A stretch of 43,718 bases of DNA from an uncultured bacterium. GTDB taxonomy: Bacteria > Eisenbacteria > RBG-16-71-46 > JABDJR01 > JAWXBZ01. This document shows, one piece after another, positions 9,839 to 43,694 of this stretch. The stretch's first letter is position 1, and the number at the start of each line of letters is the position of its first letter. A program made the position numbers and the translations under genes. Under the pieces are notes generated by a model. The model saw only the letters and a program-made list of their open reading frames with translations, did no database searches and was not told the DNA's origin. The stretch is from NCBI GenBank assembly GCA_964596775.1, contig CAZQVN010000008.1:1-43718 (forward strand). Direction: 5' to 3'.

Positions 9839-9955
9839 GTGCGGTGTCCTCGATGCGTTGCGGCCGGCCGGGCGCCGGGCATCGAGGCGAAGCCGCCCCA
9901 CCGAGCGGGCGCTGCGGAAGGCCGCAGCGCGTCGGCCTCCCCGGGAGATCAGCGG

Positions 9956-10750
9956 ATGTCCGGTTTCTATCAGAAAGTGCTGTCGCTCCTCGATGCGGGG
10001 CATTCCATCGCGGTGGCGACGCTCGTCGAGACGAAAGGATCCACGCCCCAGGTGCAGGGTGGAAAGATGATCATCACCGGCGACGGCGAGATCTTCTTCT
10101 CCATCGGCGGCGGAGCCCTGGAGGCTTCCGTCATCGCCGAGGCAAAGGTGTGCCTGGCGGAAGGGCGCCGCGCCCTGAAGACGTACGCGCTGCACGACGT
10201 CGGCGACGATGCCCTGGGGATGGCCTGCGGCGGGAAGGCCACCGTGTTCATCGAACCGTTGCGCGCTCCCGACCGGCTTCTCGTGTTCGGCGCCGGACAT
10301 GTCGGCCGCGCGCTGTGCCGGCTCGCGGAAACGCTCGGGTTCGGGATCGACGTCGTGGACGACCGCCCGGACATGCTGGACCCGACGCACTTTCCGGACG
10401 GAACCCGCTTTCATCTCACCGACCGCCGTTTCCGCGACAACCTCCCGCCTTTCGGCACGGATGCGCATGTCGTGCTCGTGACGCGCTGTCACGAAACGGA
10501 CGAGGCGGCGCTCGAGTCCGTGATCGCGCTGCCCGCCGCCTACATGGGCATGATCGGAAGCCGGCGGAAGGTGAGGGTCGTGTTCGAGAACCTGGAGAAG
10601 GCGGGGATTCCGCGGGAGGCCATGGCCCGGGTCCGTGCGCCGATCGGCATTCCGATCGGCTCGCACATGCCCGAGGAGGTGGCCCTGTCGATCATGGCCG
10701 AGATCGTGGCCGTCCGCAATCGTGTTCCGGCGGAACGGCAGGCGCCGTGA
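9956..10750 (+). CDS. xdhC: XdhC/CoxI-family molybdenum-enzyme maturation factor
   Basis: The N-terminal XdhC_CoxI-like region (LLDAGHSIAVATLVETKGSTPQ...GGGALE) is followed by a Rossmann-like half (LLVFGAGHVGRALCRLA). The ATG at 9956 has a GGGAGA SD upstream. The longer upstream ORFs (9742 and 9839) are GC-rich extensions without an SD. Confidence 0.8.
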   Translation: MSGFYQKVLSLLDAGHSIAVATLVETKGSTPQVQGGKMIITGDGEIFFSIGGGALEASVIAEAKVCLAEGRRALKTYALHDVGDDALGMACGGKATVFIEPLRAPDRLLVFGAGHVGRALCRLAETLGFGIDVVDDRPDMLDPTHFPDGTRFHLTDRRFRDNLPPFGTDAHVVLVTRCHETDEAALESVIALPAAYMGMIGSRRKVRVVFENLEKAGIPREAMARVRAPIGIPIGSHMPEEVALSIMAEIVAVRNRVPAERQAP

Positions 10751-11565
10751 GAAACGACCTGGTCCTGGTCCGCGGCGGCGGGCGCCTGGGCACCGCGGTG
10801 GCTCACCGTCTGCGGCTGTGCGGTTTTCCGGTCATCATGACGGAAGCGGCGCGCCCGACCCTTCTGCATCGACGGGCCTGCTTCGGTTCCGTGATCTACG
10901 AGACGGACATCATGGTGGAGGACGTCCCGGCGCGGCGCTGCTCGAACTTCGAGAGCCTGAGCCAGATTCTCGAGGCGGGAGTCATTCCCGTGCTCGTGGA
11001 TCCCGCGGCGCTGGTACGGGAGTCGGCCACCCCCTGGGTCCTCGTGGATGCGATCGGACTCGAACGCAACGTGGGAACGCGGATCACCGACGCCCCGATC
11101 GTGATCGGCGTGGGGCCCGGCTTTGCAGCCGGCATGGATGTGCATGCGGTGGTGGAATCGCGCGACGGCAACGGTCTCGGCACGTTCACGGTGACGGGGA
11201 AGCTCGACGACCCGGTGCCGGGCCCGTGGTCGCCGGACCTCGACGGGATCGTGTTGTCCGGCGGTGTCGGACGTTTTGAAAGTCTTACGGAACCGGGGCG
11301 GTTCGTCGGGGAGGGAGATGAGATCGGCCGTGTCGGCGGGCAGCCCGTGACCGCGCCGCGGACGGGCCTCGTCACCGGAATCCTCATGGACGGGCTGTTC
11401 GTCGGGCAGGGGGTGCGGCTTGCCGACGTGGATGCGAGGACCGACCCCCGGATCGTGACGAGCCTGGACCCGAGAGCCCGCGCTGTGGCGGGCGGAGTTC
11501 TCGAAGCCATTCTCTACGTGGCGGCCATCGGGAAGTCGGAGGGGCAGGGGCTTTCCCGTTCCTGA
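10747..11565 (+). CDS. YqeB C-terminal-domain-like protein (EF2563 / selenium-dependent molybdenum hydroxylase accessory family), translationally coupled to xdhC
   Basis: GTG overlaps the xdhC stop (GTGA). The N-terminus LVLVRGGGRLGTAVAHRL is Rossmann-like. Assignment to the YqeB family rests on my recollection of the family and on adjacency to xdhC; no search was run. Confidence 0.45.
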   Translation: MRNDLVLVRGGGRLGTAVAHRLRLCGFPVIMTEAARPTLLHRRACFGSVIYETDIMVEDVPARRCSNFESLSQILEAGVIPVLVDPAALVRESATPWVLVDAIGLERNVGTRITDAPIVIGVGPGFAAGMDVHAVVESRDGNGLGTFTVTGKLDDPVPGPWSPDLDGIVLSGGVGRFESLTEPGRFVGEGDEIGRVGGQPVTAPRTGLVTGILMDGLFVGQGVRLADVDARTDPRIVTSLDPRARAVAGGVLEAILYVAAIGKSEGQGLSRS

Positions 11566-11652
11566 TGGGTTCCCGGCAGGGCATCCCGATTCCGTTCATG
11601 TGGCCGGTATTGCCCCCTCGGAGTCCAGGATGAGTTTGCGTCCCGGAGTCGA

Positions 11653-11697: not shown

Positions 11698-12141
11698 ATG
11701 AGATTGACTTCACGGATCGACTACGGACTTCGGGCCATGATGGACCTGGCCCTGAACTACGGCTCCGCGGTGATCCAGAATCACGACATCTCCCGCCGGC
11801 AGAGAATCCCGGAACAGTATCTCAAGCAGATTCTTCCCTCGCTGCGTCGCCGGAGCCTGGTGCTGAGCACCCGGGGGCCGCTGGGAGGTCATCGGCTTTC
11901 GCGGCCGCCGTCCGAAATTTCCGTGGCCGAAATCATCGAGGCCCTCGATGGAGGGATGAACCTCCTGGAAATGGGAGGAGACGGGAAAGGCGAGGCGCCC
12001 GCGGCGGAGTCGGGAAGGATTCTCGCGGAATTCTGGAACGAGCTTCGGGTGGAGGTCGACCGGTTCCTGAAGGACACGTCGCTGGAAGATCTCTGCCGTC
12101 GCAAGCGGCGCCATGACCGGTCTTTCATCTATCATATCTGA
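11698..12141 (+). CDS. Rrf2-family transcriptional regulator (CymR/IscR-like, no obvious Fe-S cysteine triad)
   Basis: N-terminal wHTH signature MRLTSRIDYGLRAMMDLALNYG...ISRRQRIPEQYLKQIL. It lies directly upstream of cysK, as in cymR-cysK arrangements. Confidence 0.85.
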   Translation: MRLTSRIDYGLRAMMDLALNYGSAVIQNHDISRRQRIPEQYLKQILPSLRRRSLVLSTRGPLGGHRLSRPPSEISVAEIIEALDGGMNLLEMGGDGKGEAPAAESGRILAEFWNELRVEVDRFLKDTSLEDLCRRKRRHDRSFIYHI

Positions 12142-12156
12142 AGGACGCGAGGCAGC

Positions 12157-13083
12157 ATGGCGCCGATCTACGACAGCCTGACCGATCTGATCGGCCGGAC
12201 CCCGCTCGTGAGGCTGGCCCGTGTTTCCAGGGCTTGCGGCGCCGAGGTCGTGGTGAAGCTCGAGTCGATGAACCCGATGTCGAGCGTCAAGGACCGGATC
12301 GGCTGGGCGATGATCGAGGCGGCCGAGAAGTCGGGACGGCTCGGTCCGGACTCCGTCATCGTGGAGCCGACGAGCGGCAATACCGGCGTTGCGCTCGCGT
12401 TCGTGGCGGCCGCGCGCGGGTACCGGGTCATCCTGACGATGCCGGACACGATGAGCATGGAGCGCGTAAGGCTGCTCAGGGCACTCGGCGCAGAGGTCGT
12501 GCTGACGGCGGGGGAGAACGGGATGCAGGAGGCGGTGACCAGGGCCATGGAGATCGCGGCCCGGACACCGGGTTCCTTCGTTCCGATGCAGTTCGAGAAT
12601 CCGGCCAACCCCGACGCGCACCGGCGGGGAACGGCCGAGGAAATCTGGTCGGACACGGAAGGGCGCATCGACGTCTTCGTCGCGGGAGTGGGCACGGGAG
12701 GGACGATCACCGGGGTCGGCGAGGTGCTCAAGGAAAGGAATCCGGCGCTGAAGATCGTGGCGATCGAGCCCGCGGAGTCAACGGTGCTGGCGGGGGGATC
12801 CGCCGGCCCGCACGATATCCAGGGGATCGGCGCCGGCTTCGTGCCGCCGGTCCTGAACCGGGAGCTGATCGACGAACTTGTTTCGGTGACAAGGGAAGAG
12901 GCCTACTCCATGGCGCGGCGTCTTGCCCGCGAGGAGGGGCTGCTGGTGGGCGTTTCCTCGGGCGCGAGCGTCCACGTGGCGGTCAAGCTGGGGCAGCGTC
13001 CCGAACTCGAGGGAAAGAGAATCGTGGCCATCCTGGCCAGCCACGGGGAGAGGTACCTGTCGGTGCCGGGCCTCTTTGAATAG
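12157..13083 (+). CDS. cysK: Cysteine synthase A (O-acetylserine sulfhydrylase)
   Basis: 308 aa with the PLP lysine motif [13 protein letters not shown] and a GNTG loop. It shows the typical CysK length and termini. Confidence 0.92.
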
Positions 13084-13086
13084 AGG

Positions 13087-13929
13087 ATGACGATGAACGG
13101 AAAGGCGGAAGACGTGAGCGGAATGGAGACGGCCGGGCTCGAGGCCGGAGAGCGTAGACTGAACGCGATTCTCGACGAGATGGGATCCGTGCTCGTGGCG
13201 TATTCCGGCGGGGTTGATTCCGCGTATCTCCTGAAAGCGGCGCACGACCGGCTCGGAGACCGGGCCGTGGGACTGATCGCGGTGTCCCCCTCGCTGCCGA
13301 AAGCGGAACTCGAGGATGCGCTGGCCGTGGCCGAGGCGATCGGCTGCCGTCTCGAGCGCGCCGAGGCCTACGAGCACATGAACCCGGACTACGTGGCGAA
13401 CAATCCGAACCGCTGCTACTTCTGCAAGATGGAGCTGTTCGATGTCTGCGCTCCGGTGGCGGATCGCCTGGGCATCGATCACATTGCCTACGGCGCGAAC
13501 ACCGACGATCTCGGGGACTTCCGGCCGGGGATGCAGGCCGCCAGGGAGAGAAAGGTGCGCGCACCCCTGCTGGAAGCAGGCCTGGGCAAGGAGGCGATCC
13601 GCTCTCTCTCGAGGAGAGCCGGCCTGTCGACCTGGGACAAACCGGCGTTTGCCTGCCTTGCTTCGCGCATACCCCACGGCACGCCGGTGACGACGGACAA
13701 GTTGCTGCGCGTCGAGAAGGCTGAGAATTTCCTTCGGGACCGGGGGTTTCGCCAGTTCCGGGTCCGGGACCTCGGCGGAACGGCGCGGGTGGAGGTTCTC
13801 CCGGAGGACATTGCGAAACTGCGGGCGCAGCCGCTCGCCACGGATCTCGAAGCGGAACTTCGCAACCTGGGATTCGACGCGGTGCATGTCGATCCCGAGG
13901 GGTATCGCCAGGGAAAGCTGCACTCCTGA
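13087..13929 (+). CDS. larE: LarE-family PP-loop ATP-dependent sulfur transferase
   Basis: PP-loop SGGVDS, the conserved CYFCK motif, and the overall TIGR00268-like layout. The start may instead be the second ATG at 13093. Confidence 0.75.
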   Translation: MTMNGKAEDVSGMETAGLEAGERRLNAILDEMGSVLVAYSGGVDSAYLLKAAHDRLGDRAVGLIAVSPSLPKAELEDALAVAEAIGCRLERAEAYEHMNPDYVANNPNRCYFCKMELFDVCAPVADRLGIDHIAYGANTDDLGDFRPGMQAARERKVRAPLLEAGLGKEAIRSLSRRAGLSTWDKPAFACLASRIPHGTPVTTDKLLRVEKAENFLRDRGFRQFRVRDLGGTARVEVLPEDIAKLRAQPLATDLEAELRNLGFDAVHVDPEGYRQGKLHS

Positions 13930-25962: not shown

Positions 25963-27333
25963 TCAGTGGCGGATCTTCGGCCAGAACTCCGGAAACTCGA
26001 AATCGGGGGTCTGTCCCGGCGTGTGGCAGGTGCGGCAGGTGTTCTCGTCGCCGCGGAGAACCTTTTCCTGGAACGGTGCCGTTATGTGCTTGCCCCCCGG
26101 GCCGTGGCAGGACTCGCACCCGACCGCGACAAGTTCCGGCTGCAGGGACTCGATGAAGAACCCGTTCGGTTTCAGGTATCCGGTGCTGTGACATCCCATG
26201 CACAGCGGGTTCAGCGTGTTCTTCGATTCCTCCAACGGCTCCCAGGCATGCGCGTGCCGGCTGGCCTTCCATGTCTCGAACTCGGCGGGGTGGCAGGAGG
26301 CGCAGGCCGCCGCGCCCACGTATTTCGTGGCGCGGGGATCGCCGCGCTGGGCCTCGGCGCGCTCGCGCGTTCTTCCCTGGAGAACACGGTCGAACCGGCT
26401 CATGAATTCGTCGGCGGCGGGGTCCACTTCGGTCTTCAGGTTGACCTCGGTGATGTCCACGGTCTTTTCCCACCCTTCGCCGGACTTCCGGAAGTCGATG
26501 CGGATCGATCGCTTGCCGAGGACTCCGGTCATCACGATGGGGACGCCCGAGGTGGCATCCTGCATGGGGTCCTCGATGCGCGCGTCCGCCCCGATGATGA
26601 GGTCGATTCCCGGTGTCGAATCCGCCACCCGGCGCGCCGTTCCGACGCCGAAGTTGGCCAGCACGATCACGACGTCGGCCTGCCCGCGCGCCTCCGCAAC
26701 AACCCTTCCGGCGACCTTGACCGGATCCTCGAAGTGGGCCTTGCCGCCGCCCGGAGTGGAGATCACCGAGTAGCGGGCGGGCTCGGTCAGGCCGATCACG
26801 GCGACCTTCGGCGCGCCGGGTTTGGGCGTTCCGGAGGGCGTCCGCGGTTCGACGATCCGGAACGGGGGGAACAGCGGGGGGCCGCCGTCGAGGCCGACCA
26901 GGTTCGCCGAGATGCCGGTGATCGAGGCCTCGCGCAGCAGTGCCTCGAGGAACCCGATGCCCCCGTCCAGTTCCGTCTCCCCGATATTGAGGATGTCGAG
27001 ACCGAGGGACGAGAACGCCTCCATCATGTACGGCACCACGACGTCCGTTTCCTGGGTCTTGAAGGGCAGGGCCCTGCCGGCGTCCAGGTACAGGAACCCC
27101 TGGTCCGGATGCGCCGCGCGATAGCGCTGGATGATGCCCGCCCGCCGGGCGTGGCCCCCGAGGTTGTCCTTTCAGCCGCAGGTGTGCAGCTGGCCGAACA
27201 GGCTCCCGGTTGCGAAGACGACGAAATCGGGATCGGCCGGCTTCGGTTTCGCGCAGGCGAAGGCCAGCAGCGCGAAACCGGCAAGAAGGGCGGAATGCAG
27301 GACCTTGTGGAGGCTGGGGGTCGATGGCTTCAT
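25963..27333 (-). CDS. Signal-peptide protein with a degenerate 5'-nucleotidase/metallophosphoesterase-like domain fused to a tetraheme cytochrome c domain, interrupted by one in-frame TGA (27172-27174): candidate selenoprotein or recent pseudogene
   Basis: The ORFs 27172-27417 and 25963-27039 are in the same frame and separated by a single TGA. Similarity to the UshA fold is continuous across the stop (GGHARRAGII, LYLDAGR, NIGETELD, DVVIVLANFGVG). The C-terminus has four CxxCH motifs (CASCH, CMGCH, CESCH, CRTCH). The N-terminal signal is MKPSTPSLHKVLHSALLAGFALLAFAC. Confidence 0.5.
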
Positions 27334-27521: not shown

Positions 27522-30017
27522 TCAGCGGCCCCCGCGGATCCGTTCGAGGAGCGCGCGCGCCCGTCCATGCCCCGGGTCGACGGCCAGCGCCGCCTCGAGT
27601 TCCCGGATTGCGTCCTCCGGCCGCCCCTGCTCGAACAGTGCCGCGCCGAGTCCGAAGCGGGCGGGCGCGAGATTCGGGGTGATCGCCAGCGATCTGCGAA
27701 AGTCCTTTTCGGCATCGGCGGGGCGCTTGAGGTCGAGGAGGAGAAAGCCCCGGTTCATCAGGACCTTCTGATCGGAGGGTTCGATGGCGATCGATCGGTC
27801 GTAGCCGGACAGGGCTTCGGAGTTGTTCCCCAGCCGCTGCTCGCAGAGAGCCAGGTTGCTCCAGCCGAGCGCGTAGTCGGGGTCGGCCTCGAGAAGCCGC
27901 CTCAGGACCGAGCGGGACTCCTCGAACCGGCCCTGCTGCATGGTGATCGACGCGAGATTGTTCGCCGCCGTCCGGCTTCGCGGGGCGATGGCCAGCGCTT
28001 TCCGGAACTCCGCCTCGGCGCCCGCCGCGTTCCCGTCGCGGGCGAGCACGATTCCGAGGTTCACGTGGCGGGAGGCCTCGAATTCCGCGTCGCCGGGAGG
28101 GGTGGATCCCGATGCCCCGGGGGAGACGGGCGGCGTGATCGGCGCGTCGCCGGTGCCCGCGGTTCCGCCGGCCGGGGCAGCCGAGGGGGCCGCCGTTCCG
28201 TCCGCGGCAGTGCCGGGTGAATCCGCCGGTCCGCTGCTGCCGGCCCCCGTGACGCGGGCCGCAGCCGGAGGCGCGTACCCGGATGTCGGCAGGTTGTCCA
28301 GGCGCAGCGTGTCCGCGGGGGCGAAGAATCCGTCCTCGAACGCCTCGCCGAGCACGCGCCCCTCGAAGGATTGCGCCAGCGGGCCGCCGAGCACGGCCAT
28401 GACGGTCGGCGCGACGTCGAATATCGAAGCGCCCCGGAGCACCGCGCCCTTCCGGACGCCGGGGCCGCTCATCACGATGATCCCCTCGAGGAGGTGCCAG
28501 CGGGCGGCGTTTGCCTCCTCCATGTCCGCGCCGCCGGTCAGGCGGGCGTCTCCGGAGCGGAATCCATGATCGGAAACGATGATCACGACGGTGCTGTCAG
28601 GGACCTCGGAGAGAAACGTGCCGAGGATCTCGTCCTGGTGCCGGTAGGCTTCGTCGACGGCGCTGCCGAAGCGGCGGAAATCGGCCTCGGACACGTCGCT
28701 CCGCCGCGGCGGAGCGAAGGGCATGAACAGGTGACTGACCGCATCGACGAACTCGAAGTAGACCATCATCAGGTCCGGTCGTTCGTCGCGGTAGAGATCC
28801 AGCCCGATGCGCGCGTAGCTGTCGGCGGTGGCGAGGGTGTGAATGAAGTTGTTGATCCGGTTCCCCTTTTCGTACCCGGGGCGCCGAACGGATTCGACTT
28901 CGGCCTCCGGGGCCGAAATGAATCGCCGGACCGCGGCGTTCGAAACGGTCGTGGAGCGGACGGCGCGGTCTTCGCGGCCGGAGAGCAGGTCCGGCGGCTG
29001 GGTCAGGTCCGCCGCGGAGGGGTCGCCGGCAACCTGCCCGGCAAATGCCAGGAATCCGAAACGGTCGGTGACCACGAATCCCTCGATCGGCTCCGCCGGC
29101 CAGGTGGCGAGCCACCCGACGACGCCGGCGCGCTTTCCGAACGCCGGAGCCAGGTTCCACAGCGCCGGCGCGGAGCGCAGCCGGCTCGTGGCCGGGACCG
29201 GTTTCCCGGACACCGGGTCGGGCGTGAGGAAGTCGAGGATTCCGTGCCTCTCCGGTCCGACCCCGGTGGCGATCGTGGTCCAGATCAGCGGGGAGAGGAG
29301 CGGCTCGATCGAGCGGAGGGGGCCGGACGCCCCGCCCCGGATGACCCGGTCCAGCACCGGAAGCCGTCCGGCCGCGCGCAGCCGGTTGACGATCGTCCAG
29401 TCCGCGGAATCGATGCCGATGACGAGCACGCGCCGGCTCCGGCTGTCCGCATGAGCGCGGGCGAGGCTCACGGCCGCTCCCGGGGCCAGGGTGACGGAGC
29501 CCGCGGTCACGCCATTCAGGCGCACGCCGATCGCGGACAGGCGCGGAGCCAGGGCCGCGGTCAGGCGCCCGGCCAGGTCGGCGGACGAGGCGCTGGTCAG
29601 CGCTTCGGCGGACTGCTCCGCGGCCAGGTTTCGCAGCTCGGTCTTGAGCCGTTCGCGGATCGGGGCGTCCGGGAGACCCCGGGCGACGTCGTGAAACGCC
29701 ACGAGACCGTCCGGATCGAGAACGCAGTCGAGTTCGACTGCCAGCCGGATTTCCGCCCCTTCCGCGGAAAACAGGCGGTAGACACCGCCGGCGGTATCCG
29801 CCGGCGCGGGAAAGCGCACCGCGAGCGGGCCGGAGGGATAGAGCGTGACCCGGTAGCCGGGGCCCCGCAGGTGAAGCCCCGGTCCGACCGCCTCCCGCGC
29901 CGGCCCCCGTTCCAGGACGGCCTGCCGCCCGTCGGGGACGACCTTGACCACAAGCAGAAACAGCGTGGCCAGCACGAGGACAATCGCGGAGATCAGGAGA
30001 GCGCGGATTTTCTGCAT
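27522..30017 (-). CDS. Membrane-anchored alkaline-phosphatase-superfamily (type I phosphodiesterase / nucleotide pyrophosphatase-like) protein with C-terminal TPR repeats
   Basis: N-terminal TM anchor MQKIRALLISAIVLVLATLFLLVV. AP-superfamily core motifs are present (VIGIDSADWTIV, SPLIWTTIATG, VIIVSDHGF), followed by five or more C-terminal TPRs. The 1476-aa ORF-track ORF extends spuriously antisense through typA, so the start is set at the ATG at 30017. Confidence 0.75.
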   Translation of the reverse strand: MQKIRALLISAIVLVLATLFLLVVKVVPDGRQAVLERGPAREAVGPGLHLRGPGYRVTLYPSGPLAVRFPAPADTAGGVYRLFSAEGAEIRLAVELDCVLDPDGLVAFHDVARGLPDAPIRERLKTELRNLAAEQSAEALTSASSADLAGRLTAALAPRLSAIGVRLNGVTAGSVTLAPGAAVSLARAHADSRSRRVLVIGIDSADWTIVNRLRAAGRLPVLDRVIRGGASGPLRSIEPLLSPLIWTTIATGVGPERHGILDFLTPDPVSGKPVPATSRLRSAPALWNLAPAFGKRAGVVGWLATWPAEPIEGFVVTDRFGFLAFAGQVAGDPSAADLTQPPDLLSGREDRAVRSTTVSNAAVRRFISAPEAEVESVRRPGYEKGNRINNFIHTLATADSYARIGLDLYRDERPDLMMVYFEFVDAVSHLFMPFAPPRRSDVSEADFRRFGSAVDEAYRHQDEILGTFLSEVPDSTVVIIVSDHGFRSGDARLTGGADMEEANAARWHLLEGIIVMSGPGVRKGAVLRGASIFDVAPTVMAVLGGPLAQSFEGRVLGEAFEDGFFAPADTLRLDNLPTSGYAPPAAARVTGAGSSGPADSPGTAADGTAAPSAAPAGGTAGTGDAPITPPVSPGASGSTPPGDAEFEASRHVNLGIVLARDGNAAGAEAEFRKALAIAPRSRTAANNLASITMQQGRFEESRSVLRRLLEADPDYALGWSNLALCEQRLGNNSEALSGYDRSIAIEPSDQKVLMNRGFLLLDLKRPADAEKDFRRSLAITPNLAPARFGLGAALFEQGRPEDAIRELEAALAVDPGHGRARALLERIRGGR

Positions 30018-30031
30018 GAATCTTGACGTTA

Positions 30032-37842: not shown

Positions 37843-38295
37843 ATGAAGACGATCGGAAGTCTGATCCGGGGGCGCGAGGTCTTTTTCATTGAACCCTCCG
37901 CAACGGTCATGGAGACCGTACAACTTCTCGTCGAAAAGAAGGTCGGAGCCGTTCCCGTCCTGGAGAACGGGAGGGTCGTCGGCATTTTCTCGGAACGCGA
38001 TCTGTTGACGCGCGTCGTGGCGAAGGGGTTGTCCCCGGACACGGTGAAGGTGGCGGACGTCATGAGCCGGGACATCATCGTGGCGCAGGCCTCGGACACG
38101 ATCGATGAATGCGAACAGCGGATGAACCAGGCGCGCATCCGCCACGTACCCGTTGTGGAAGGGGACCGGATGATCGGGTTCGTGTCCCTCCGCGGTCTTC
38201 TCCAGGAGGAAGTTTCCGAGAAGAGCGAGGAAATCGAGTACCTGAACTCCTACATCCACTTCCAGCCCCCGGCCCCGGAAGCGGGCGAAGCGTAA
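37843..38295 (+). CDS. CBS-pair domain protein
   Basis: Two CBS motifs are present (VGAVPVLENGRVVGIFSERDLL, RHVPVVEGDRMIGFVSLRGLL). The ATG at 37843 is preferred over the upstream TTG at 37768. Confidence 0.75.
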   Translation: MKTIGSLIRGREVFFIEPSATVMETVQLLVEKKVGAVPVLENGRVVGIFSERDLLTRVVAKGLSPDTVKVADVMSRDIIVAQASDTIDECEQRMNQARIRHVPVVEGDRMIGFVSLRGLLQEEVSEKSEEIEYLNSYIHFQPPAPEAGEA

Positions 38296-38299
38296 CCCC

Positions 38300-38767
38300 T
38301 TGGCGATCACCGAAGTCAGCCTCAGCCTCGAAGAGGGGAACGTTTGCCAGATCTTCACGAAGACGCACATCATCGCCGCGGACGATCCGGCCGATCCCGA
38401 GGCCGAGGACGAGGGGCCGACGCCCCTGGAATACGTGATGGCCGGCTACGGCGCCTCGGCGGCGATCGCGGTGAAGGAAACGGCGGACCGGCTGGACATC
38501 GAGGTGGAGGAGGTCCAGGCCAGCGTCAAGTGGCGGACGACGCACCGCAGGCTGATGGACACCGACGAGCCGCGGACGCCCCACGCGATCCAGCGGGAAA
38601 TCCGCATCCGGGTGGGCCGTGACATTTCCGAGCAGGAGCGGGACGCGCTGATCGCGGCCGCCAAGTCGTGCCCGGTGGACCGGGCCCTGGCCGGCGGTCC
38701 GAAGGTCGAGGACGCGCTGTACGTGTTCGGTTACGCCGATCCGGACGGCGGAGAGCCGGCGGAGTAG
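38300..38767 (+). CDS. OsmC/Ohr-family-like protein (second Cys position substituted)
   Basis: TPLEYVMAGYGAS...AAKSCPV resembles the OsmC core. The TTG start lies 5 nt after the CBS stop. Its 3' end overlaps the convergent GreA-fusion gene by 37 bp. Confidence 0.5.
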   Translation: MAITEVSLSLEEGNVCQIFTKTHIIAADDPADPEAEDEGPTPLEYVMAGYGASAAIAVKETADRLDIEVEEVQASVKWRTTHRRLMDTDEPRTPHAIQREIRIRVGRDISEQERDALIAAAKSCPVDRALAGGPKVEDALYVFGYADPDGGEPAE

Positions 38768-41481
38768 ACCACCCCCGCCGGAGGCCCCGCCGGCTTTTTC
38801 TCGGCGACCGAGAGCAGCGTGAACTTCTTCACGGTTTCGCCGGTCACGTAATCGAACGCCTCCCCCGCCTTCCGTCCGTACATCGAGCGGCCGAGCGGCG
38901 CGCGGTACGAAATGACGTTGTCGCCGTAGACGCCGTCGCCCTCGCCGAGAATCCAGTACTCCGCCTCGACGCCGGTCTCCTCGTCGCGGATGCGGACGAG
39001 CGTGGCCGGGCCGGCCTTCGTGCCGTCCACGGTCAGGTCTTCGAGGATGCGCACCTTCTCCAGGTGGGCATCGAGCTGGGTCAGGCGCTTGGACGCGTTC
39101 GCCTGTTTCAGCTTGGCCGCTTCGTACTCCGCGTTTTCCTTGAGATCTCCGAGTTCGCGCGCCTTGCGGATGGCGGCTGGGATGACCGTCTTCAGGTCGA
39201 GGTTGACCCGGGCCAGCTCCGCGGACAGCGTTTCGAACGTGAAGCGGGTCATGATGATGGCGCCGCTCATGATGTCGTCCTGGGGCGCGGCGCTGAACAG
39301 CTTGGCGTGCGCCTGGGCGCGCTTCGACTGGACGGACTGGACGACCGCGGAGAGTCCGGCGTCGTCGAACGCATCGAGAATCGGGAACAGCACGCGGTCC
39401 GAGGCGCGCCAGTCGCGCAGGCGGGCCATGAGGATCGATTCCGTTCTTTCGTCGGGCGGGCAGGCGCGCACGCGCGACATCAGCCCCCCCCTGGCATCCA
39501 TCAGCTTGATCCCCTTCTTGCGGACCGGCTCGCGGCCGGTCGTGTTCAGCAGGTCGAGGACGCCGATGAGGACGGACCAGAGAATCACGTCGTAGCGCCC
39601 GTCGTTGTCCGCGTCGGCGGCCACGCGATCGGCGGCCACGAACAGCGCGTCGATGTTGTCGGACGGCGCTTCCGAAAGCCGGCGGTAGAAGGCCACCGGG
39701 TCGGGGTTGCCCTCCCTGAACAGGCTGTCGAATGCGCGATCGCGGAGCGTGGCGGAGCGGGCGTTCAATCCCACCGCCAGCGCGTCGGCGCGGGCGGAAC
39801 TGGCCAGGCCGATGTCGAGCATCTCGATCTGCTCGGCCTGGCTTCCGGCCGTGGACAGGTCGAAGCGCTCGGTAAAGAAGTCGATGATCGCGGCGCGGTG
39901 TTCGCTCTTCCTGTCGGACTGCCACTTCGAAAGCAGCAGATGCGCCCGGGCCCGCTCCGGCAGCTTCGCCGAAGTGCGGGACGACCACTTTTCGACCCGC
40001 TCGGCGTACTTCTTCATCAGGGCATCCGAGGAACCGGGGTGATGTTCAAGGTAACCGAGGACGAGGTCCATGTTGTGATGGATCCCCTGCGGCTCGTCGA
40101 TCGGAAGTTCGACGGCCACGTCCTCGTCGTCGTCGAGGTTCTGCGCGGGGTCCGGGAGGGCGTAGCTGTCGCGGAAGGCCTGGCGCGCGTCGATCCGCGG
40201 GTCGGAGGCCATGGCCGTCTTGGCCTTTTTCCACCAGCCGCTCCACTCGCCCGTGGCCAGCACGGCCGGAACCAGGATTTTCCGGAGCGCCGGGCCGTCC
40301 GCTTCACCGCCGGCGCGCCGCAGGCCGATGATGACCAGCTCCACGGGATCCTCGGTCACGAGTTTCCGAAGCCGGTCCTTGTGGAACGCGACGAGCACCT
40401 TGAGATCGTCGGCCGGGAGGCTGGCGAGGACCTGGCTGGCGGCCTTGAGATTCATCCGGTGGTTCGGTTTCGTGGCGAACTTGATCGTCAGCGATTCGCC
40501 GTCGTTGTCGAGGATTTCGCCGAGCCCCCAGCCGGAGTGCTCCACGTAGAACCCGGGGGAGTAGGGGAGAACCGTGTCGAGCATCTTCAATCCTTCCGCC
40601 GCCGGCAGGGCCAGGCGGCCGAGACCGGAGACCTCGATCATCCGCTCGATGGCCGGGAGGTTCTTGCGGGCTTCCTTGAGAACGGTCACCGCGAGCGGCC
40701 GCCAGGCGTTCGCGCCGGGGTGGCGTTCGAGCGCGTGCCGGGCCGTTTTCCAGGCGGCTTCGGCCAGGTTGTGCCGGAGAGCGCCGGGCAGGATCATTTC
40801 GAACAGCGCGGCGGCGGGATCCCCGAATCCCTCTTTCGTCAGTGCGTCCACGGCCTCGAGGCAGCGCAGGAACACCGAGGCTTCCGGGGCTTCGACGAGC
40901 CGGAGGATCGTTTCCTCGACCCGCGCGATGTCCTTTTCCTCGGCCAGCGGAGTCAGCGACGCGGCGAGCAGGCGGCGCCCTTCCTTCGACGTGCCGCGGT
41001 CCTCGAGCATCGATCCGAGGCACCAGGTCAGCTCGTGGAAATCGGGGAGCTGCGTGTGCGCGGCCCGGAGCGTTTCCTCGGACACGGCGGAGCCGCCCGA
41101 CTTTTTCCAGGCGCGGACCAGGTAGCGGGCCGCGGCCATCGATTCCGAGGCGGTGAGCCACTCGCCGGCAACGCGGGAGAGGACGGGCCACGCCTCCTGC
41201 TGATTCAGCTTTTCGCAGAGCGGCTGGTACAGCTGGTCGGCCAGGTCGAGGTCGCCCCGCAGGCGGGCGAGTGCCGCTTCCACGTACGTGCGCGCCGTCT
41301 GAACGCCCTGGCGGGCCGGCAGCTTGCCGAGATGGCCGTCGACGCCGTCCAGCGTCTTGTTTTCCGCGGCGGCCGAGAGGGCCGTGGACAGGGCGGCGTA
41401 GCCGTCGGTATCGAGATCGGCGGCGCCGTTCGCGCCGAGAGCCGATTCGAGGGCGGCCGAAAGGTCGGCGGATGAGCTCAT
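38731..41481 (-). CDS. Giant GreA-family protein: ~750-aa N-terminal region of unknown function fused to a C-terminal GreA/GreB transcript-cleavage-factor domain
   Basis: The C-terminal ~160 aa form a canonical GreA domain (LSAELARVNLDLKTVIPAAIRKARELGDLKENAEYEAAKLKQ...FKBP-like tail). The frame is continuous. The start is placed at Met57 (the ATG at 41481, MSSSADLSAALE), with Met1 at 41649 as the alternative. The antisense 935-aa ORF is Arg-rich noise. Confidence 0.7.
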   Translation of the reverse strand: MSSSADLSAALESALGANGAADLDTDGYAALSTALSAAAENKTLDGVDGHLGKLPARQGVQTARTYVEAALARLRGDLDLADQLYQPLCEKLNQQEAWPVLSRVAGEWLTASESMAAARYLVRAWKKSGGSAVSEETLRAAHTQLPDFHELTWCLGSMLEDRGTSKEGRRLLAASLTPLAEEKDIARVEETILRLVEAPEASVFLRCLEAVDALTKEGFGDPAAALFEMILPGALRHNLAEAAWKTARHALERHPGANAWRPLAVTVLKEARKNLPAIERMIEVSGLGRLALPAAEGLKMLDTVLPYSPGFYVEHSGWGLGEILDNDGESLTIKFATKPNHRMNLKAASQVLASLPADDLKVLVAFHKDRLRKLVTEDPVELVIIGLRRAGGEADGPALRKILVPAVLATGEWSGWWKKAKTAMASDPRIDARQAFRDSYALPDPAQNLDDDEDVAVELPIDEPQGIHHNMDLVLGYLEHHPGSSDALMKKYAERVEKWSSRTSAKLPERARAHLLLSKWQSDRKSEHRAAIIDFFTERFDLSTAGSQAEQIEMLDIGLASSARADALAVGLNARSATLRDRAFDSLFREGNPDPVAFYRRLSEAPSDNIDALFVAADRVAADADNDGRYDVILWSVLIGVLDLLNTTGREPVRKKGIKLMDARGGLMSRVRACPPDERTESILMARLRDWRASDRVLFPILDAFDDAGLSAVVQSVQSKRAQAHAKLFSAAPQDDIMSGAIIMTRFTFETLSAELARVNLDLKTVIPAAIRKARELGDLKENAEYEAAKLKQANASKRLTQLDAHLEKVRILEDLTVDGTKAGPATLVRIRDEETGVEAEYWILGEGDGVYGDNVISYRAPLGRSMYGRKAGEAFDYVTGETVKKFTLLSVAEKKPAGPPAGVVYSAGSPPSGSA

Positions 41482-41672
41482 GGGGGGAAGTCTCCCTCTG
41501 GATAAGGCAAAAGAGAGCGGTGACCCCGTTGATCGGGGCCGGACCGCACGCTTCATTTGAAGAATGAAAGCCATCATGTATACCCTATATGGCCTGTTTC
41601 TGGCAACCGAAGGGGCGACCGGCTGTGGTACTCTACACGGACCCATCACCCACTTTCCGGAGACTCGAAGAC

Positions 41673-43694
41673 ATGTCCGATCTGCTCCATCGCACAGTTG
41701 AAAAGCGGGCCGACACGGTCCGTTTCACCGGCCGCGTTCTCTATCTGACGACCGACCCGAACCTGATCAAGCAGCAGCTCGCCGGGCAGGACCTGGCGTG
41801 GACTCCCGATATCAAGCTCAGGGACGACATCTCCACCGACGAGATCACCCCCGCGTACATCTGCTACTACTTCGACGACACGCTCGGCGATTTTCCCTAC
41901 CTCGGCCTCAAGGCCGGCAACGAAACGCCCTGCGAGCGCGGACTCGTCCGCGCCGGCGGTTTCGAGATATCCGTGTCCGGCAAGCGGCGCGGCAAGGGAT
42001 CGTCGCGGGAGCAGTCGCCGTACGCGGAACTGTGCGCCGGGATCAAGCTCGTGGTGGCCGAGAACATCGAGCGGATCTACCAGTCGAACTGCCAGAATCT
42101 CGGGATCCTCACGACCACCGACTTTGCGCTGCTGGATCGGATCCGGAAGGGGGAGGAAGTGCCCCTGTCCGCGTTCACCGCGGGGCATGACGACATCACC
42201 CGGCAGATCATCGAGTACGGCGGGCTGTTTCCGTTCAACGTGGCCCGCCTCCAGGGAAATGTGACGGTGCCGCCGATCGACACGAAGCCGCGGCCGATGA
42301 CGCTCGCGGAGAAGATCTTCGCCCGCCACATGGTTGCCGACGCGGCGAAGGGAACGGTGGGCGTGCCGGCCGTGAAGCCCGGCGACGCCGGCTTCGCCCG
42401 CACCGACCTCCGGTTCAGCCATGAATACGTGACGCCGATGGCCGCCGACTTCTTCATGAATCTCGTCGGCCGCGACGCGAAGGTGAACGATCCGGAAACG
42501 ATCGTGTTCTTCCGGGATCACCTGACGTTCCTCGACAAGGCGATGACCCCGGAGCGGATCAAGATGGGGCTGCTCAAGGTGGCGCTCCAGCTCAAGAAGA
42601 AGCAGGAGGAGTTCGCCGCCGAGCAGGGGATCACGCTGCACGGGGAGCTCCTGGACGGCTCCGGCTCCGAGGCGATCTGCCACTCCAAGGTGCTCCAGGA
42701 TTACGCGCTCCCCGGCCAGCTGATCATCGGCTCCGACAGCCACACGCCGCACTCCGGCGCCATCGGCTGCGTGGCCTTCGGCGTGGGCACGACCGACGTG
42801 TTCAACTCGTGGATCACGAAGGACGTGCGGGTGAACGTGCCGGAAACGGTCAAGGTGCGCGTTTACGGCAACCGGCCGGCCAACGTCACCGCCAAGGATT
42901 TCATGCTGGAGATCCTCCGCCACCCGTTCGTGAAGACCGGCCAGGCGATCGCCAAAATCGTGGAGTACTGCGGCACGGCGGTCGAGGAGCTGTCGATCGA
43001 CGAGCGGGCCACGATGACGAACATGGCCGCCGAGGTCGGAGCGTTCACCGGTCTCGTCGCGCCGGACCGGCGGGCGGTGGAATTCCTGATGGCCACGCGG
43101 GGGATGGACCGGAAGGCGGCCGAGGCGCTGCTGGACGGGCTCTTTTCCGATCCGGACGCGGAGTACTGCCAGATCATCGAGATCGACGCCGGCGCCATGC
43201 GGCCGCTGGTGGCGCTCCCCGGCGACCCCGGCAACGGCCGCTACGTGGACGAGCTGGACGGCAAGGTGAAGATCGACATCGCCTACGCCGGGTCGTGCAC
43301 GGCCGGCAAGAAGGACGACATGGACATGTACGCGCTCGTCCTCAAGGAAGGGCTCGAGGCCGGGAAGAAGGTCGCGGACGGCGTGCGCTGCTACATCCAG
43401 TTCGGCAGCCAGGAAGTGAAGAAGTACTGCGAGGAGCAGGGGTACATCGACGTCTTCAGGAAGGTCGGCGCGGAAGTGATCGAGCCGTCCTGCGGCGCCT
43501 GCATCAACGCCGGCCCCGGCGTGTCGAAGACGGAGGGGGAGGTGACCGTGTCCGCGATCAACCGCAACTTCCCCGGGCGGTCCGGTCCGGGGCAGATGTA
43601 CCTGGCGAGCCCGCTGACCGTGGCTGCGTCGGCGCTGGCGGGGTACATCACGGAGTACAGGCCGCGGGTCGGGGCGGCGGCGGGAGCGCGGTAG
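41673..43694 (+). CDS. Aconitase-family Fe-S hydro-lyase with N-terminal swivel (LeuD-like) domain preceding the catalytic (LeuC-like) domains
   Basis: The LeuD-like motifs DDISTDEITP and GKGSSREQS lie N-terminal to the catalytic region, which carries GSDSHTPHSGA and the Cys ligands PSCGACINAGPG. The ATG at 41673 has a GGAGA SD; the upstream part of the 701-aa ORF is an extension. Confidence 0.75.
   Translation: MSDLLHRTVEKRADTVRFTGRVLYLTTDPNLIKQQLAGQDLAWTPDIKLRDDISTDEITPAYICYYFDDTLGDFPYLGLKAGNETPCERGLVRAGGFEISVSGKRRGKGSSREQSPYAELCAGIKLVVAENIERIYQSNCQNLGILTTTDFALLDRIRKGEEVPLSAFTAGHDDITRQIIEYGGLFPFNVARLQGNVTVPPIDTKPRPMTLAEKIFARHMVADAAKGTVGVPAVKPGDAGFARTDLRFSHEYVTPMAADFFMNLVGRDAKVNDPETIVFFRDHLTFLDKAMTPERIKMGLLKVALQLKKKQEEFAAEQGITLHGELLDGSGSEAICHSKVLQDYALPGQLIIGSDSHTPHSGAIGCVAFGVGTTDVFNSWITKDVRVNVPETVKVRVYGNRPANVTAKDFMLEILRHPFVKTGQAIAKIVEYCGTAVEELSIDERATMTNMAAEVGAFTGLVAPDRRAVEFLMATRGMDRKAAEALLDGLFSDPDAEYCQIIEIDAGAMRPLVALPGDPGNGRYVDELDGKVKIDIAYAGSCTAGKKDDMDMYALVLKEGLEAGKKVADGVRCYIQFGSQEVKKYCEEQGYIDVFRKVGAEVIEPSCGACINAGPGVSKTEGEVTVSAINRNFPGRSGPGQMYLASPLTVAASALAGYITEYRPRVGAAAGAR

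Follow-up and report, generated by a model that had tools for sequence, protein, structure and literature searches.

An in-frame UGA probably encodes selenocysteine in a divergent UshA-like tetraheme cytochrome

The 43.7-kb window analysed here covers positions 1 to 43,718 of contig CAZQVN010000008.1 (assembly GCA_964596775.1), from an uncultured bacterium. Its minus strand carries a gene (27333..25963) that joins a 5'-nucleotidase-type domain to a tetraheme cytochrome domain, and whose reading frame is broken by one TGA. Comparative evidence suggests that this is very probably an intact selenoprotein gene, in which the UGA at codon 54 would be read as selenocysteine (Sec) by way of a hairpin 16 nucleotides (nt) downstream, and whose product would belong to the already catalogued UshA-like (seleno)protein family.

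The frame runs from the ATG at 27333-27331 to a terminator TGA at 25965-25963 and translates as 456 codons. Its sole internal stop is the TGA at 27174-27172 (codon 54), with no further stop and no frameshift in 1.37 kb. Around codon 54 the peptide reads LHTCG-U-KDNLGG (...FVVFATGSLFGQLHTCG*KDNLGGHARRAG..., where the asterisk stands for the UGA; the context is also given as ...FATGSLFGQLHTCG-TGA-KDNLGGHARRAG...). A mechanical listing of open reading frames (ORFs) breaks the gene in two at this codon, and the public protein entry for it (P0001, NCBI) is a truncated product of 354 residues. TGA terminates 10 other genes of the window and is therefore an ordinary stop here, without genome-wide reassignment of UGA; a scan of all 43.7 kb for TGA codons with coding-like composition on both sides returned only the target site and one antisense artefact. 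An ATG in the same frame 28 codons further upstream (27417-27415) could also serve as the start, but the signal peptides of the orthologs favour 27333. A first-pass annotation of this DNA had described a single frame, free of frameshifts and broken only by this TGA, in a window where TGA is otherwise a genuine stop; translation bears out that description, down to the peptide quoted. The features of the gene are listed below, with L and P numbers denoting related loci and proteins.

25963..27333, minus strand: putative complete selenoprotein coding sequence of 456 codons with UGA-Sec at codon 54, from the frame and its full-length alignment to Cys-form homologs.
27253..27333, minus strand: putative signal peptide with a terminal Cys27 of lipoprotein type (LLAFAC), read from the sequence; the hydrophobic stretch and the Cys are conserved in all orthologs.
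26404..27228, minus strand: UshA/5'-nucleotidase-type metallophosphoesterase-fold domain, about residues 36-310 (boundaries approximate), from PDB profile matches and Foldseek searches with a model of P0009.
27178..27180, minus strand: TGC codon of Cys52, the partner residue of the C-G-U motif; Cys stands in this column in every N-terminally complete aligned homolog.
27172..27174, minus strand: UGA codon 54, read here as Sec; TGA in L001-L005 and L091, TGC in the syntenic L088-L090, and Cys/TGA alternation family-wide.
27136..27155, minus strand: hairpin resembling a selenocysteine insertion sequence (SECIS), with 5' arm GCCACGCCC (27155-27147, A27152 bulged), loop GGC (27146-27144) and 3' arm GGGCGGGC (27143-27136).
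25966..26328, minus strand: C-terminal tetraheme cytochrome c554-type domain, about residues 336-456, from Pfam PF13435 and PDB 1bvb.
26304-26290, 26202-26188, 26118-26104 and 26037-26023, minus strand: CxxCH motifs at residues 344-348, 378-382, 406-410 and 433-437.

Database searches returned relatives of two kinds. The first comprises full-length proteins of 457-493 residues and 40-46% identity, which read EPCG-C-KDGLGG and hold a Cys in the TGA column. The second comprises the five closest relatives (50-63% identity), deposited at 389-392 residues and all starting at the first Met past the site. The DNA of these five, and of a sixth (P0014), contains in every case an in-frame signal peptide leading into FATGSL[FY]GQL[HQE]TCG-TGA-KDKLGGHARRAG. 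All six orthologs (L001-L005 and L091) place the TGA at the same column, within TCG-TGA-KD[KN]LGGHARRAG and with conserved coding on both sides. Together with the window gene they make seven Sec-form sequences from different samples (JGI, NCBI, Logan), which differ synonymously both upstream and downstream of the TGA; their pairwise identities of 44-86% show that they are not copies of one contaminating sequence. At the codon-54 column the syntenic orthologs L088-L090 have TGC. The Cys-form proteins P0009, P0012 and P0007 share the neighbourhood of the window gene (in order: BipA, Band7/Phosphodiest/TPR, the family gene, acyl-CoA dehydrogenase, PMT_2/TPR, DUF1684 and DAHP synthase) and are thus positional orthologs, so the exchange of Sec for Cys has taken place within one orthologous gene. 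Public gene calls shorten the window gene (to 25963-27039) and all six Sec orthologs, giving 354, 379 or 389-392 residues rather than about 450-460; the shortened calls begin at the first Met or GTG past the UGA and lack the signal peptide and the CxU motif.

The same alternation extends across the wider family. A scan of genome collections, with a pattern drawn from the heme domain that returned only relatives of at most 32% identity, yielded 17 further Sec-form genes in 16 loci from several phyla, reading PCG-TGA, and more than 30 Cys forms, reading PCGC; a metagenome scan with the single window protein gave two cytochrome-domain matches only. Sec forms of the wider family occur in two Eisenbacteria genomes (L021 and L028); in one of them, Candidatus Eisenbacteria bacterium ABC2.84 (L021:4904-7400), two UshA-like paralogs with PCG/ECG-TGA stand in tandem, and past the TGA of each lies a hairpin whose triloop is GGC or GGA. 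UGA conserved in orthologs, Cys in homologs and coding conservation on both sides form the pattern by which a selenoprotein is recognised. The first-pass annotation had offered Sec as one of two readings of the TGA and had proposed aligning orthologs at this column; the alignment shows TGA or Cys there rather than scattered stops, and the Sec reading is upheld by the six further TGA orthologs, by the Cys that the syntenic orthologs have and by a downstream hairpin that only the Sec forms share.

This hairpin begins 16 nt past the UGA, spans codons H61-G66 and folds as GCC(A)CGCCC-GGC-GGGCGGGC, with a predicted free energy of -14.6 kcal/mol. Its apical loop starts with GG 25 nt downstream of the UGA, a position that we take to fit the published bacterial SECIS consensus; a stem-loop shortly past the UGA with a G-containing apical loop is the form of such an element. 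A 21-nt block (GGCCACGCCCGGCGGGCGGGC, 27156-27136) starting 15 nt past the UGA is identical in 7/7 Sec forms, wobble positions included, and differs in all three Cys orthologs, which do not form the window hairpin. Among the 113 degenerate codon columns that are invariant in amino acid, 25 (22%) are also invariant in codon, and the only codon-invariant run longer than two in the gene consists of the seven codons G-H-A-R-R-A-G downstream of the UGA. In ten distant Sec forms a hairpin occupies the same codon register (G-L-A-R-R-[A/V]); its triloop is GGC or GGA, and its stem shows compensatory changes. When these ten were combined with four representatives of the window's clade, the pair between the Ala and Arg wobble positions was complementary in 14/14 Sec forms, with C-G, G-C, A-U and U-A all present, and all five inner pairs were formed in 12/14 Sec forms, as against 1/34 Cys forms. 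A formal count gave 91.8% paired cells, compared with 29-48% for slid registers and with no equal in 500 shuffles, and 13 double-sided changes in the stem, compared with at most 4 in controls. Judged by this pattern of sequence, the hairpin in all likelihood acts as a bacterial SECIS element. Some distant Sec forms (L027, L034, L057, L070, L071 and L078) carry a second style of hairpin about 20-40 nt past the TGA of the family gene, in which the stem closes a GGUCU loop over the GG-L codons (e.g. CUGGGC-GGUCU-GCCCAG), a loop reminiscent of GGUC in the fdhF SECIS of E. coli. The UshA-like family seems to use at least two SECIS solutions.

Several observations weigh against reading codon 54 as Sec in a member of this family. 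Neither the 43.7-kb window nor 25 related loci contain selA, selB, selD or tRNA-Sec. No Rfam family reached the gathering threshold anywhere in the window, and across the family the stretches past Sec codons do not differ in mean free energy from those past Cys codons. The first-pass annotation had suggested folding the nucleotides past the UGA: a hairpin with a GGC loop is there, but its stability alone is indistinguishable from that of GC-rich shuffles (z=+1.2 over 81 nt, z=-1.4 over 27 nt). The hairpin is moreover invariant within the window's clade, and its covariation comes from distant relatives only. Lastly, the best NCBIfam match of the protein, NF041198 'UshA-like (seleno)protein' (UshA_like_PCGU; E=1.8e-70), scores 238 bits, below the curated cut-off of 275.

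The Sec machinery not seen in these loci also speaks for the rival that survives best, in which the UGA is recoded other than as Sec, either by near-cognate read-through (Trp, Cys or Arg) stimulated by the hairpin or by termination and reinitiation to give two products; downstream hairpins can stimulate stop-codon read-through generally. We nevertheless consider such recoding improbable. Orthologs have Cys at this position, the CxU/CxC motif is one already catalogued for a selenoprotein family, and the loop starts with GG at a spacing typical of SelB-dependent SECIS elements. Reinitiation faces further difficulties: no start codon is conserved past the UGA, the Met chosen by gene callers being the first available, and the product would have no signal peptide and could not receive c-type hemes. 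Attachment of c-type hemes requires export, and the sole signal peptide lies upstream of the UGA, so only read-through gives a functional cytochrome.

A recent nonsense mutation, leaving a one-hit pseudogene, would suit a single stop in an otherwise clean frame and the treatment of the TGA as a stop by public gene callers, as in the 354-residue P0001. This is very improbable, as the six orthologs with TGA at the same column come from different samples at 44-86% identity, synonymous differences have accumulated on both sides of the codon, the downstream hairpin is nucleotide-invariant in TGA forms only, and 1.37 kb hold no other lesion. A sequencing or assembly error hiding a true TGC or TGG has in its favour that the source appears to be a metagenome-assembled genome, but it is scarcely credible given the TGA in seven independent assemblies (JGI, NCBI, Logan) and a Sec-specific hairpin that co-occurs with the TGA and is absent from TGC orthologs. 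The fallback of the first-pass annotation, 'a very recent nonsense mutation or sequencing error', is therefore refuted by the seven Sec forms, while its view of one gene rather than two stands: gene callers do yield a downstream ORF, but a 53-residue lipoprotein-like peptide beside an independent cytochrome gene can practically be dismissed, as full-length Cys homologs align continuously and colinearly across the TGA column, the 5'-nucleotidase-fold alignment already starts upstream of the TGA (profile positions 24-32) and the downstream ORF has no signal peptide.

With codon 54 read as Sec, the protein comprises two domains behind a signal peptide that is predicted to direct export and lipid anchoring. 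A family profile matches, in the PDB, the N-domain of the 5'-nucleotidase 2z1a (E=3.5e-36), SoxB (~5e-26) and the cytochrome c554 1bvb (E=5e-22), and an AlphaFold model of the Cys ortholog P0009 (predicted local distance difference test score, 90.2) retrieves 5'-nucleotidases and SoxB in Foldseek (E ~1e-18). Pfam detects the cytochrome c554 domain only, and both its score (PF13435, 67 bits against a cut-off of 20.8) and its four CxxCH motifs, invariant in 24-50 homologs, place it in that family. PF02872, the C-terminal substrate-binding domain of 5'-nucleotidases, has no Pfam match in the window protein, and the PDB alignments to 5'-nucleotidases cover the N-domain only, the C-terminus being cytochrome. 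In the P0009 model C52 and C54, numbered as in the window protein, belong to the loop that joins beta1 (37-42) to helix 61-74, and profile alignment likewise sets C-G-U in the beta1-alpha1 loop, about 8 residues past the motif I (DxH) position. The profile alignment to 2z1a rejects a candidate alternative in which LHTCGU takes the place of motif I itself (LHTNDxH).

The dimetal ligands of UshA metallophosphoesterases (DxH, GD, GNHE, H, GHxH) are missing from the window protein, where the corresponding positions read S44/F46, DAGR87, GETE119-121, LAN227, GAD250 and R252. Of the more distant family members tested, most keep D/E at motif I, D at II and H at both IV and V, whereas throughout the window's clade, in Sec and Cys orthologs alike, motif I has become S/G, the D of motif II R, the H of motif IV N/S and the H of motif V D/E/T/S/A. 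The architecture proposed by the first-pass annotation agrees with these data: the 2z1a match and homologs continuous across the column support UshA-type similarity on both sides of the TGA, the alignment and ligand comparison confirm a degenerate site with GD changed to GR and GNHE to GETE, and neither the signal peptide nor any of the four heme sites is damaged.

By its sequence, the window protein falls, as a divergent member, within the catalogued UshA-like (seleno)protein family, by far its best match, and its divergent clade is probably Eisenbacteria. The NF041198 model (519 positions) aligns in two stretches, with positions 386-518 falling on residues 319-447 in the heme domain. Syntenic orthologs score 240-247 bits, and 2/10 other relatives tested pass the cut-off, with 282 and 287; the replacement of the metal ligands in the window's clade fits these sub-threshold scores. 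In common with the family, the protein has an N-terminal 5'-nucleotidase-fold domain and a C-terminal multiheme domain, here tetraheme and of c554 type; C-G-U or C-G-C at the homologous column ahead of a GGxxRR helix (C52-G-U54 here, CGC or CG-TGA in homologs); alternation of Sec and Cys; and a hairpin in the same register. It differs in reading TCGU rather than PCGU, in having replaced ancestral metal-ligand residues that most other members keep, and in its gene neighbourhood, which is not that of the members in Planctomycetota and Verrucomicrobiota. In 9-11 distant loci of those two phyla (L036, L037, L049 and others) the same-strand genes before the family gene encode DUF4159, DUF1573/Ig-like and large membrane proteins without annotation, a recurrent arrangement that the window's clade does not have and that is uninformative on function.

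The first-pass annotation had suggested that a Sec form of this protein would represent an 'undescribed family', which does not hold, because the family has long been catalogued. An entry 'COG0737, UshA-like' with the motif CxU appears in the selenoproteome of the Global Ocean Sampling expedition with 76 Sec and 92 Cys sequences (Zhang and Gladyshev 2008, PMC2398784), the family recurs in a 2022 review (PMC9312934) and in a 2026 review citing NF041198 (PMC13188914), and the NF041198 model already spans the tetraheme domain. A literature search found no experimental work on this CxU family.

Comparison with characterised systems places the protein among several relatives of fold or of chemistry. 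It shares the N-domain fold of UshA, other 5'-nucleotidases and 2',3'-cyclic phosphodiesterases (2z1a, 1ush, CD73), with the GGxARR helix, DAG and SAN still recognisable, but has lost the dimetal ligands, carries a tetraheme cytochrome in place of the C-terminal substrate-binding domain and bears the Cys/Sec motif; nucleotide hydrolysis is not expected. The thiosulfohydrolase SoxB (2wdc, 4uwq) belongs to the same fold family (profile E ~5e-26, Foldseek ~2e-18), is likewise periplasmic and sets a precedent for a phosphoesterase fold acting on sulfur compounds. Unlike the window protein, SoxB has a di-manganese site and no Sec, CxC or heme domain, and the NCBIfam SoxB model gives a score of 33 against 550. 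The heme domain resembles cytochrome c554 of Nitrosomonas europaea (1bvb) in its four CxxCH motifs (Pfam 67 bits, PDB E=5e-22); in the window protein, however, it is a fused electron-transfer module, while c554 is a free-standing protein of the ammonia-oxidation pathway, and NCBIfam Cyt554 scores 53 against 400.

The closest parallel in chemistry is the pentaheme selenoenzyme MccSep from Geobacter sulfurreducens, which uses Sec and Cys to reduce polysulfide and selenite (PMC13510729; PDB 9wt8) and offers the only experimentally characterised Sec site fed by multiple c-type hemes that our literature search found. From its sequence the window protein would, like MccSep, be periplasmic and bring together c-type hemes, a single Sec and a Cys that works with it. 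MccSep belongs to an unrelated family and differs in having five hemes, a Cys that serves as a heme ligand, a GUP context for its Sec and no phosphoesterase-fold domain; the two align with E=0.0065 over only about 35 residues around one heme motif, and the NCBIfam model ExtKL (NF040886, multiheme c-type cytochrome selenoprotein) gives 12 bits against a cut-off of 250. The resemblance is one of analogy, not of membership. A further UshA-like selenoprotein family, family 2 (NF049981), also has the UshA-like fold with Sec near the N-terminus and gives a weak local match to residues 50-121. Its motif is CxxU whereas the window protein has CxU, its model of 262 positions is too short to include a cytochrome domain, and the score of 32.5 bits lies well below the cut-off of 140.

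These comparisons allow a mechanism to be proposed. The protein would be exported by the general secretory translocon and held by its lipid anchor facing the periplasm, where four hemes would be attached covalently to the C-terminal domain. The Cys52/Sec54 pair would form the catalytic redox centre, cycling for example through a selenylsulfide, and the hemes would relay electrons between this pair and the respiratory chain. A C52-U54 selenylsulfide is plausible from the motif, and a CxU/CxC motif on a degenerate phosphoesterase scaffold, together with four hemes, suggests a periplasmic redox enzyme. The analogy with MccSep and the fold relationship to SoxB lead us to a tentative guess that its substrate could be a small chalcogen compound, e.g. 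polysulfide, selenite, thiosulfate or tetrathionate. A bolder proposal, which we regard as unlikely, is that the window's clade has shed every residual metal ligand, so that catalysis would depend on the Cys52/Sec54 pair alone, connected to the four hemes. The protein would then be a metal-free, selenylsulfide-based periplasmic chalcogen reductase or oxidase, independent of MccSep in origin and mechanistically distinct from the other UshA-like members, which may still bind metal.

The gene lies among housekeeping genes, namely proS, TPR proteins, an XdhC-like gene, Rrf2, cysK, larE, aroE, trpE/F/B/A and DAHP synthase, and further genes for acyl-CoA dehydrogenase, BipA, a Ser/Thr kinase, CinA-like, CBS and OsmC-like proteins, a GreA fusion and an aconitase-family protein; its BipA shares 82-83% identity with proteins that carry the name Candidatus Eisenbacteria, and the source is probably a metagenome-assembled genome of that group. 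The upstream neighbour on the same strand (27525-30026, minus) encodes a protein of about 830 residues with Band_7/SPFH, type I phosphodiesterase (PF01663) and TPR domains. This gene adjoins the family gene also in L001, L002, L088 and L089; the gap to the start of the family gene is about 190 nt in the window and 11 nt in L088 and L089, which suggests co-transcription in the latter two loci.

The first-pass annotation had seen a faint hint of selenium metabolism in an xdhC gene paired with a YqeB-like gene elsewhere in the window. The XdhC-family maturation factor is real (9839-10747, plus strand; PF02625 and PF13478; NCBIfam XdhC_rel_AOR 238 bits against a cut-off of 350), but the ORFs downstream of it (10750-11600) match no family, no YqeB-family protein was found elsewhere in the window, and the hint is unsupported. 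An OsmC-like protein (38246-38764, plus strand) gives a weak 44 bits with the 'OsmC-related (seleno)protein' domain of NCBIfam, where the cut-off is 95, and was rejected as a Sec form, there being no in-frame TGA in its coding region or upstream of the domain; the CinA/CBS/OsmC arrangement is also present in L002. A row of three genes (11698-13926, plus strand), coding for an Rrf2-family regulator, CysK and a LarE-type ATP-dependent sulfur transferase, may be a small cluster for sulfur metabolism that has nothing to do with the target gene. The minus-strand stop-to-stop ORF at 38734-41724, of about 997 residues, opens with a long stretch that has no annotation; its GreA domain is confined to the C-terminus (812-974), and its best match is the long GreA-fusion model NF011309. 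At 41568-43691 (plus strand) one stop-to-stop frame matches a LeuD-like small subunit (83-200) and then an aconitase/isopropylmalate-dehydratase large subunit (244-696), and may be a small-large fusion in unusual order.

Overall, the gene is real and its family is not new, so that no new kind of system is revealed. The NCBIfam cut-off misses the window's clade and gene callers need to be Sec-aware to recover such genes intact. Following the 2026 demonstration that a multiheme selenoprotein reduces polysulfide, the combination of a dead phosphoesterase fold, a CxU motif and four hemes makes this protein a reasonable candidate for biochemistry. Read as a selenoprotein gene, it places selenocysteine use in Candidatus Eisenbacteria and offers, among positional orthologs, a clean natural Sec/Cys pair accompanied by gain or loss of a SECIS hairpin.

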